Source: Clostridiales bacterium
GTDB taxonomy: Bacteria; Bacillota; Clostridia; HGM11327
Length of the DNA: 50,264 nt
Assembly: GCA_015056475.1 (NCBI GenBank)
Contig: SVGF01000001.1
Span: 1-50,264, forward strand
Reading direction: 5' to 3'
This document shows positions 34,607 to 35,686 of the stretch, in pieces (position 1 is the first letter of the stretch; each line of letters opens with the position of its first letter). Made by a program: the position numbers and the translations under genes. The notes below the pieces were generated by a model. That model was not told where the DNA came from. It saw only the letters and a list, made by a program, of their open reading frames with translations, and ran no database searches.

Positions 34607-35686
34607 TCACTTTTTCATGCTTTCAACAAACTTATCAAACAAATAAACGCTATCCTGTGCGCCGGGAGCACTTTCGGGCTGATACTGAACAGCAAATACG
34701 TTATCAGCCTCGCAAGCAACGCCTTCAACCGTGCCGTCGGACACGTTTGTGTGCGTTACGGTAAGGCAAGTGCCTTCAACGGACTTAGCGCATACTGCGT
34801 ATGAGTGATTCTGTGACGTGCTTTCAACCTTGCCGTTTGCAAGTGCCTTTACGGGGTAGCCGCCTCTGTGGCCAAACTTAAGCTTATACGTTTCTGCACC
34901 GTAAGCAAGAGCAATTATCTGATGTCCCAAGCCGATACCAAATATCGGGAACTTGCCCTTGAGCGCCTTTACAAGCTCTATTACGTTTGCAACGTCCTTG
35001 GGATTGCCGGGACCGTTTGAAATGAGGATTCCGTCGGGATTCATCCTTTCGAGCACGCTTGCTTCAATATTGTAGGGCACAACTGTTACGTTACAGCCTC
35101 TCTGATTGAGGTTTCGAACTGTGCTGAGCTTTATACCGCAGTCAACTGCAACAACGTTATACTTTGCGCTTGTGGTTCTTGAGTACCATCTCTTTTTGCA
35201 GCTCACCTTTTCAACTGCGTTTGTGGGGATATCGTACTCTGAAATCTTTTTGAGAGCTTCTTCCTTTGAGGTTGAAACGTCTGTAAGTATCGCCTTCATC
35301 GTGCCGTTATCTCTTATGCAACGCGTGAGCTTTCTTGTATCAATACCCTCAATGCCGGGAATATGATGATCAAGCATTTCCTCCGCAAGAGTCTTTGTAT
35401 ATCTGAAGTTTGAAGGCTGGTCGTTATATTCTCTTACTATCAATGCGCCGATAGAGGGATTCTTTGTTTCAAAATCCTCATCGGTAATGCCGTAATTACC
35501 AATAAGCGGGTAAGTCATTACCACCATTTGATTTGTGTAGGAAGGATCGGAAATAATTTCCTGATATCCCACCACGCAGGTATTGAACACGAGCTCAGCG
35601 ATGATCTCTTTGTCTGCACCAAAACCGTAGCCAACGTATTCACTGCCGTCTTCGAGCACTAATTTTTTGTCCGGTTCTCTTATCAT
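34607..35686 (-). CDS. carA: Carbamoyl-phosphate synthase small subunit with a substituted glutaminase triad
   Basis: Typical CarA N-terminal domain and GATase scaffold (SNGPGNP, GHQ, SQNH). However, it has GIGLGHQ where GICLGHQ is expected, and VQYQPE where VQYHPE is expected. Confidence 0.9.
   Translation of the reverse strand: [359 protein letters not shown]

Follow-up and report, generated by a model that had tools for sequence, protein, structure and literature searches.

Loss of the catalytic Cys and His from the small subunit of a pyrimidine-operon carbamoyl phosphate synthetase in gut Clostridia, and its probable use of free ammonia

Carbamoyl phosphate feeds the synthesis of both pyrimidines and arginine. 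The bacterial carbamoyl phosphate synthetases (CPSases) are treated as glutamine-dependent enzymes of the CPS II type only (PMC6022934, PMC6245113), and glutamine is stated to be the physiological nitrogen donor 'for all bacterial CPSases', the use of ammonia being regarded as irrelevant (PMC6245113). Does this hold for an enzyme whose glutaminase subunit has lost its catalytic residues? The question is raised by carA, the gene for the small subunit, in the pyrimidine (pyr) operon of a Clostridiales bacterium (contig SVGF01000001.1 of assembly GCA_015056475.1; the 50,264 nucleotides analyzed are hereafter called the window). A preliminary description of this DNA, made from the sequence alone, had placed Gly and Gln at the positions of the nucleophilic Cys and the catalytic His of CarA, and had suggested an ammonia-dependent CPSase.

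The carA open reading frame (ORF; see Table 1) encodes a protein of 359 residues that aligns end to end with E. coli CarA. Both Pfam domains are full length (CPSase_sm_chain, PF00988, 2.4e-49, 166.8 bits; GATase, PF00117, 3.8e-44, 151.1 bits), the TIGR01368 score of 435.7 bits lies 128 bits above the cut-off of 307, and carA stands directly upstream of carB; by domain content, curated cut-offs and gene position the protein is a full-length small subunit, as the preliminary description had it. A phmmer search against the PDB matched E. coli CarA across both domains (1e-74), with PIFGIGLGHQ of the window protein opposite PVFGICLGHQ and FAVQYQPESAPG opposite FSFQGHPEASPG. Gly252 is thus aligned with Cys269, Gln336 with His353 and the retained Glu338 with Glu355, and the motif positions on which the description had relied are correct by profile and phmmer alignment. 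The codons of Gly252 and Gln336 are GGC and CAG; the canonical sister loci L006 and L007 have TGC and CAT, a single T>G step in both cases. The replacements go far beyond chance: Cys269, His353 and Glu355 are each invariant in 191 of 191 close canonical relatives. Cys-269 and His-353 are described as essential for glutamine hydrolysis via a thioester (PMC6245113). The AlphaFold2 (AF2) model of the window CarA (predicted local distance difference test, pLDDT, 90; predicted template-modelling score, pTM, 0.90) finds its best structural match in E. coli CarA (template-modelling score, TM, 0.91); human CPS1, with its N-terminal moiety, comes next (TM ~0.87). In subunit architecture, operon slot, fold and profile membership (TIGR01368/TIGR01369) the window enzyme is like canonical bacterial CPS II; unlike it, two of the three residues of the class-I amidotransferase triad, the nucleophile included, are gone from the CarA sequence, with Gly252 in place of the nucleophilic Cys and Gln336 in place of the general-base His. 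Since a CarA with neither a thiol nucleophile nor a general-base His cannot hydrolyse glutamine, the subunit is predicted, with near certainty, to be catalytically dead as a glutaminase.

Residues of the tunnel and of the active site were compared between 191 close canonical relatives and 54 Cys-less CarA proteins (E. coli numbering). Among the canonical proteins Ser35, Ser47, Asn294, His295 and Pro358 are, like the triad, invariant, and Pro360 is present in 190 of 191; Ser35, Asn294, His295, Pro358 and Pro360 are all variable among the Cys-less proteins. The window CarA carries Ser35Cys, Met36Val, Cys269Gly, a deletion of Asn294 together with His295Tyr, His353Gln and Pro360Ala. Asn294 is deleted in 42 of the 54 Cys-less proteins and His295 is replaced by Tyr in 40, and three or four Cys-less groups have each lost one residue after Gly293. 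Gly292/Gly293 and the loop of residues 356-361 form the wall of the ancestral ammonia tunnel, and replacement of Gly293 in CPS1 blocks that tunnel (PMC4655335). The same loop, residues 341-343 (Pro-Gly-Ala) of the window protein, is the only part of the AF2 model with a pLDDT <50. Judged from these substitutions, constraint on the glutaminase site is released after loss of the Cys. The view of the preliminary description, of a lone and otherwise canonical CarA with two hits on the triad, therefore stands in part: both hits are there, but further tunnel and active-site residues have changed and the protein has many Cys-less relatives.

The size of this group was gauged from neighbours of a Cys-less query, so that the following fractions are biased upward: Gly or Ala occupies the Cys position in 20 of 43 loci with a full-length or near-full-length carA, found by scanning one genome per GTDB species; the Cys is absent from 34 of the 207 nearest 90%-identity clusters; and, among the nearest 150 representatives of 50%-identity clusters, about 40 lack it, nearly all with Gly in its place and with highly variable His and Glu positions. 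In one further scanned locus, L032, the Cys is kept, but Ile stands in place of the His and Asp in place of the Glu. The metagenome-assembled genomes (MAGs) with scan loci are labelled Congzhengia, Oscillospiraceae, Acutalibacteraceae, Clostridia, Fimenecus and Tidjanibacter, and those without the Cys were recovered from the guts of goat, sheep, deer, horse and other animals. As far as sequence can tell, Cys-less CarA is clearly a large and diverse group among uncultured gut Clostridia. These proteins are named 'glutamine-hydrolyzing' by NCBI and TIGR01368. A literature search returned no report of a bacterial CarA without the Cys, which is weak evidence of novelty as most subscription papers lay outside its coverage.

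Cys-less and canonical carA genes share one slot, pyrC-carA-carB-pyrKDF(E)BI. As the same pyrC-carA-carB slot is found in sister lineages, the Cys-less gene is, by position and sequence, the orthologue of canonical carA and not an extra paralogue. In the CarB tree the window clade is sister to the canonical L006/L007 (bootstrap 100%) and the L024/L029/L046 group is sister to the canonical L008 (99%); monophyly of all Cys-less genomes receives 0%. The CarA tree groups nearly all Cys-less proteins at 53%, a value that falls to 0% for the N-terminal domain alone, and this grouping most likely reflects attraction between fast-evolving sequences. A single ancient loss of the Cys, as the CarA tree would have it, was rejected given these values and the pairing of Cys-less clades with canonical sisters in the CarB tree. 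On this phylogenetic evidence at least two losses of the Cys are well supported, and there were probably four to five. Transfer of carA together with the 5' end of carB was rejected as well, since CarB residues 1-200, which adjoin carA, keep the species signal (76-88%). This signal is lost only in segment 201-400, which is not contiguous with carA and which argues against a simple recombination tract; an exchange of carA alone between lineages retains some residual plausibility.

Some members of the wider collection depart from the common pattern. Three MAGs labelled Bacteroidota (L019, L030 and L034; Paludibacteraceae and Tidjanibacter) carry a Clostridia-type carA-carB-pyrK-pyrD-pyrF-pyrB cluster with a CarA 61-65% identical to that of the window; both Tidjanibacter copies are Cys-less, with Gly at this position, His and Glu kept and Asn294 deleted. 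These clusters reflect either horizontal transfer into Bacteroidales or contamination during binning. The metagenomic CarA P0118 (70% identical) has Cys269Gly, keeps His353 and Glu355, has a one-residue deletion of its own (GHR-GNYPV) and sits with canonical CarA in the neighbour-joining tree; it may show the same process at an early point, or else one more independent loss. Some 78 residues of the GATase domain are repeated in tandem within P0004, a CarA of 437 residues from 'Eubacterium sp.'; this duplication is either real or an artefact of assembly. In a rabbit gut MAG (L037) carA and carB are each split in two frames, and carB of L035 stops after 210 codons; both were read as frameshifts or assembly errors and left out of the rate analyses.

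Loss of the Cys is accompanied by changes in rate. The divergence of the GATase domain relative to CarB is 2.37 in Cys-less pairs and 1.09 in canonical pairs, and that of the N-terminal domain of CarA is 1.47 and 1.15, respectively. Tajima relative-rate tests were run on the window and its canonical sister L006, with L008 as the outgroup (counts are changes in the window lineage versus the L006 lineage). The counts are 31 vs 7 for the GATase domain, 19 vs 6 for the N-terminal domain of CarA and 63 vs 26 for the whole of CarB. Domain by domain, CarB gives 28 vs 7 for the carboxyphosphate domain (residues 1-400), 18 vs 5 for the oligomerisation domain (401-550), 9 vs 7 for the carbamoyl-phosphate domain (551-930) and 8 vs 7 for the allosteric domain (931-1059), that is, 46 vs 12 for residues 1-550 and 17 vs 14 for residues 551-1059. 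The contrast of the L024 group with L008 shows the same pattern of CarB excess. A lineage-wide acceleration is excluded by PyrC, PyrK and PyrD, which together give 75 vs 65. The carboxyphosphate and oligomerisation domains are those that contact the small subunit and receive ammonia (PMC6245113); thus, in these sequences, the acceleration is confined to CarA and the CarA-contacting half of CarB.

Within that half, a set of substitutions is seen repeatedly when Cys-less lineages are compared with their canonical sisters; these fall between residues 218 and 347. T230A is found in five of five contrasts, Y218F, S322T, S342A and F343C in four of five, and N233S, C251A and L347I in three of five; S253A also belongs to this cluster. 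The triangular gate of the ammonia tunnel is formed by Cys232, Ala251 and Ala314 (PMC8674909, PMC4655335), and the recurrent sites flank it, residue 251 being itself part of the gate. In control contrasts between canonical lineages only one or two recurrent sites were seen, and these were scattered; what stands out against the controls are the sites shared by at least four of the five contrasts and their clustering in CarB 218-343.

How, then, would such an enzyme obtain its nitrogen? An inactive glutaminase-like domain is kept beside an intact synthetase, as expected of an ammonia-specific CPS, and the sequences indicate, in support of what the preliminary description had suggested, that the pyr-operon CarAB probably uses free ammonia, without hydrolysis of glutamine. 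CarB would make carbamate from bicarbonate, ATP and free NH3 drawn from the ammonia-rich surroundings of the gut or rumen. The dead CarA would persist without a catalytic role, as a partner by which CarB is stabilised or activated, and would form part of the access path for ammonia, as the glutaminase-like domain does in vertebrate CPS I. Where ammonia is plentiful, the ATP spent by glutamine synthetase would be saved. We infer both this role of CarA and the rationale of ATP saving. The co-evolution of CarA and CarB around the ammonia gate lends the proposal indirect support. The mechanism is plausible: the entire synthesis from ammonia is the work of CarB. In E. coli, variants whose glutamine tunnel is blocked or perforated show normal activity with external ammonia, and gate variants affect both nitrogen sources (PMC4655335). 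In CPS1, external NH3 is proposed to travel along the interface at which its N-terminal moiety meets the C-terminal one to the same gate (PMC4655335); a path of this type would explain why the dead CarA is kept and co-evolves with CarB. In its broader form, for which we see the case as evenly balanced, the proposal is that of a recurrent class of gut and rumen bacterial CPSases that gave up glutamine in several losses, followed by remodelling of the tunnel wall in CarA and of the gate in CarB, with the dead subunit serving as an entry port for NH3 or an activator, perhaps as a sensor of glutamine or nitrogen status.

Several observations weigh against this proposal. All the trees are neighbour-joining trees only, and for three of the five contrasts the nodes on which their independence depends have weak support. 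The total of parallel CarB sites does not exceed that of the canonical-only controls, so that an overall excess was rejected; the parallel substitutions are few, and several go towards the residues of E. coli (Ser233, Ala251, Ala253). Finally, the E. coli CPSase needs very high, probably non-physiological concentrations of ammonia (PMC6245113), so that an enzyme truly dependent on ammonia would have to bind it with far higher affinity.

One rival explanation is an error of sequencing or assembly, or a gene on its way out. This assembly or strain does have lesions: compared with an otherwise identical contig, the adjacent pyrC has a 2-bp indel. However, exactly the same CarA protein is encoded on contigs of three Joint Genome Institute (JGI) metagenomes, and one such contig, of 49 kb, runs collinear with the window. 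In four 90%-identity clusters, at 96, 80, 74 and 74% identity, the Cys is replaced by Gly throughout and the His by Gln, Gln, Gln and Ala, respectively; the 80% relative comes from an NCBI MAG (GCA_965337945.1) in which carA lies in the same operon. The occurrence of the same substitutions in independent assemblies and in diverged orthologues argues against a sequencing error. The ratio of nonsynonymous to synonymous substitution rates (dN/dS) between the window CarA and its 96% orthologue in L052 is 0.041 overall and 0.049 in the GATase domain, where 10 nonsynonymous and 45 synonymous differences are found; it ranges from 0.04 to 0.13 across comparisons, the carA ORF is intact in all lineages and the predicted fold is confident. 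Decay is excluded by a dN/dS of 0.04-0.05 and, on these ratios, the dead CarA is kept by purifying selection across the whole protein. The contention of the preliminary description that neither random decay nor a sequencing error is involved is thus upheld, and orthologues in related genomes, about which it had asked, share the Gly/Gln pair, with Ala in place of Gln in one of the two at 74% identity; we give an artefact or a pseudogene next to no probability.

Three further explanations accept the gene as real. In one, already raised in the preliminary description, another part of the genome encodes a second, canonical CarA or a whole second CPSase, such as an arginine-pathway carAB, through which carbamoyl phosphate is made from glutamine, and the pyr CarA is a structural relic or a competing partner. 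Only 50 kb of the genome are visible, and some Firmicutes (Bacillus, Lactobacillus) do have two CPSases. Yet the Cys-less carA occupies the orthologous pyrC-carA-carB slot and is co-transcribed with its own carB (a gap of 32 nt, and in other copies an overlap of 4 nt with pyrC), and strong purifying selection and co-evolution with CarB would be unexpected if another CarA served this CarB. Moreover, a separate and complete CPSase would not make this CarAB glutamine-dependent. No genome with two loci was found in the GTDB scan, a weak argument as the scan used query-specific peptide patterns. We consider this explanation unlikely, if the most serious of the rivals. That CarA still hydrolyses glutamine or another amide by means of a different nucleophile or base is very improbable. 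The window CarA does retain most residues of the glutamine pocket (Ser47, Gly241, Gly243, Leu270, Gln273, Asn311 and His312) along with Glu355, but the nucleophile position is Gly or Ala in 53 of the 54 Cys-less proteins and never Ser or Thr, and the His position is taken by Gln, Asn, Tyr, Ile or Ala. The pocket itself decays in sisters (Gln273Glu in P0002; His272Leu in P0003 and P0005) and no compensating Cys or Ser is found across the clade, Cys37 being confined to the window and P0001. The largely retained pocket of the window clade could also mean that the dead CarA binds glutamine as an allosteric sensor of nitrogen status that switches CarB on, with NH3 as the substrate; the E. coli C269S protein reportedly binds glutamine and, in doing so, raises the ATPase activity of the large subunit. 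Against such a sensor, conservation of the pocket residues does not extend to the wider Cys-less radiation, and the deletion of Asn294 with His295Tyr alters the region of pocket and tunnel. We regard it as improbable, though less so than the use of an alternative nucleophile. Free ammonia as the nitrogen source of this CarAB, with a CarA devoid of glutaminase activity, is thus the reading that we prefer.

The closest known parallel is vertebrate mitochondrial CPS I (human CPS1, PDB 5DOT/5DOU), in which, as in the window, a full glutaminase-like domain is kept and its catalytic Cys lost. CPS I uses free ammonia, and the window CarAB would, by its sequence, resemble it in this respect too. Unlike the window enzyme, CPS I is a single fused polypeptide with Ser, not Gly, at the nucleophile position, needs N-acetylglutamate (NAG) and serves the urea cycle; the window shows no sign of NAG dependence, and has two separate genes in a bacterial pyrimidine operon and a CarA from which the His has also gone. 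The two arose independently, as the nearest relatives of the window proteins are canonical bacterial CarA and CarB. The same two positions have been changed by engineering in the E. coli CPSase (the C269S protein is seen in crystal structure 1C30): C269G/S and H353N reportedly abolish glutamine-dependent activity and keep NH3-dependent activity (work attributed to Rubino et al. 1986 and Miran et al. 1991). Those are laboratory mutants with a poor affinity for ammonia, whereas the state seen in the window is natural, fixed and selected, with further changes in CarA and CarB. In frog CPS I and in CPS III of Alcolapia fish, an altered amidotransferase domain has convergently brought about a switch from glutamine to ammonia (PMC7657897). 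These enzymes keep the Cys-His-Glu triad and lose glutamine-binding residues; the window clade is the reverse, having lost the triad and kept most of the binding residues. In prokaryotes, carbamoyl phosphate is made from ammonia without glutamine by the carbamate-kinase-like 'CPS' of Pyrococcus (PMC6022934), which, unlike the window enzyme, has an unrelated amino-acid-kinase fold and involves neither CarA nor CarB.

Judged by sequence, the window CarAB is notable for the breadth of the Cys-less group, the apparent recurrence of the loss and the matched co-evolution of CarB. If the broader form of the proposal is true, these enzymes would stand as the bacterial equivalent of vertebrate CPS I, of independent and probably repeated origin, and the generalisation that all bacterial CPSases use glutamine (PMC6245113) would be overturned. 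Thousands of 'glutamine-hydrolyzing' annotations in gut genomes would then be wrong, an error that would spread to metabolic models of the gut microbiota. The sister lineages with and without the Cys in the same slot would amount to a natural experiment on the residues that control the access and affinity of ammonia in a tunnel enzyme. Direct use of NH3 would also link nitrogen economy to enzyme design, the saving of ATP being of importance to energy-limited anaerobes where ammonia abounds.

The genes around carA form a pyrimidine operon in the order pyrC, carA, carB, pyrK, pyrD, pyrF, pyrE, pyrB and pyrI, which is kept in related loci (Table 1). CarB is 94% identical within the window clade and has the gate residues Cys232, Ala251 and Ala313 (equivalent to E. 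coli Ala314); PyrC identity within the same clade is 76-84%. At the 3' end of pyrC the window lacks 2 bp (GATTCA[AA]TGAATTT) that are present in JGI contig L001, to which it is otherwise identical; the deletion shortens PyrC from 411 to 380 residues and does away with its ATGA overlap of 4 nt with carA. The version of the window is also seen in contig L002, which derives from another metagenome and ends 8 nt past the deletion site; as L002 shares it, the deletion may be a genuine polymorphism between strains and not an error of assembly. Upstream of pyrC, a promoter that matches the sigma-70 consensus at 12 of 12 positions is followed by a structured leader with two long hairpins. An Rfam scan upstream of the operon found no PyrR element and no other known family; the leader may be an undescribed pyrimidine-responsive attenuator.

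Table 1. Coordinates of the features of the window discussed in the text (MFE, minimum free energy).
Feature	Position	Strand	Remarks
carA	34607-35686	minus	
CarA Cys37	35576-35578	minus	at Ser35, in the small-subunit ammonia tunnel; Cys only in the window and its 96% relative P0001
CarA codon 252	34931-34933	minus	Gly at nucleophile Cys269
CarA Tyr277	34856-34858	minus	in GHRGG-YPV; Asn294 deleted and His295Tyr, directly after Gly292/Gly293
CarA codon 336	34679-34681	minus	Gln at triad His353
CarA Ala343	34658-34660	minus	at Pro360, loop after the triad; Ala throughout the window clade
carB	31395-34574	minus	1059 aa, intact large subunit; 32 nt downstream of carA; NF003671 1488 bits
carB codons 218-347	33534-33923	minus	recurrent substitutions flanking the ammonia gate in Cys-less lineages
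pyrC	35774-36916	minus	dihydroorotase; 380 aa in the window, 411 aa in other copies, overlapping the carA start by 4 nt
pyrC 3' end	35774-35778	minus	2-bp deletion (~35776)
pyrK	30650-31381	minus	Pfam
pyrD	29745-30656	minus	Pfam
pyrF	29047-29745	minus	Pfam
pyrE	28375-29031	minus	Pfam
pyrB	27433-28350	minus	Pfam
pyrI	27004-27420	minus	Pfam
Sigma-70 promoter	37086-37114	minus	TTGACA-17-TATAAT with TG, upstream of pyrC
Structured leader	36917-37080	minus	~160 nt, after the promoter; MFE -49 kcal/mol, z = -4.67
Corrinoid cluster	19560-23915	plus	
Gut-1 RNA (RF01706)	8-82	minus	Rfam, 52.8 bits vs gathering 50

Elsewhere the window is unremarkable chromosomal DNA from a Clostridia-type gut bacterium that degrades plant polysaccharides. 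Close to its left end lies a match to Gut-1 RNA, a motif of gut metagenomes without known function. In a further cluster, a protein of 412 residues without a Pfam match comes first, ahead of a B12-binding corrinoid protein, a URO-D/MtaA-like methyltransferase and a RACo-type reductive activase; the gene content of this cluster suggests a corrinoid-dependent methyl-transfer (demethylase) system.

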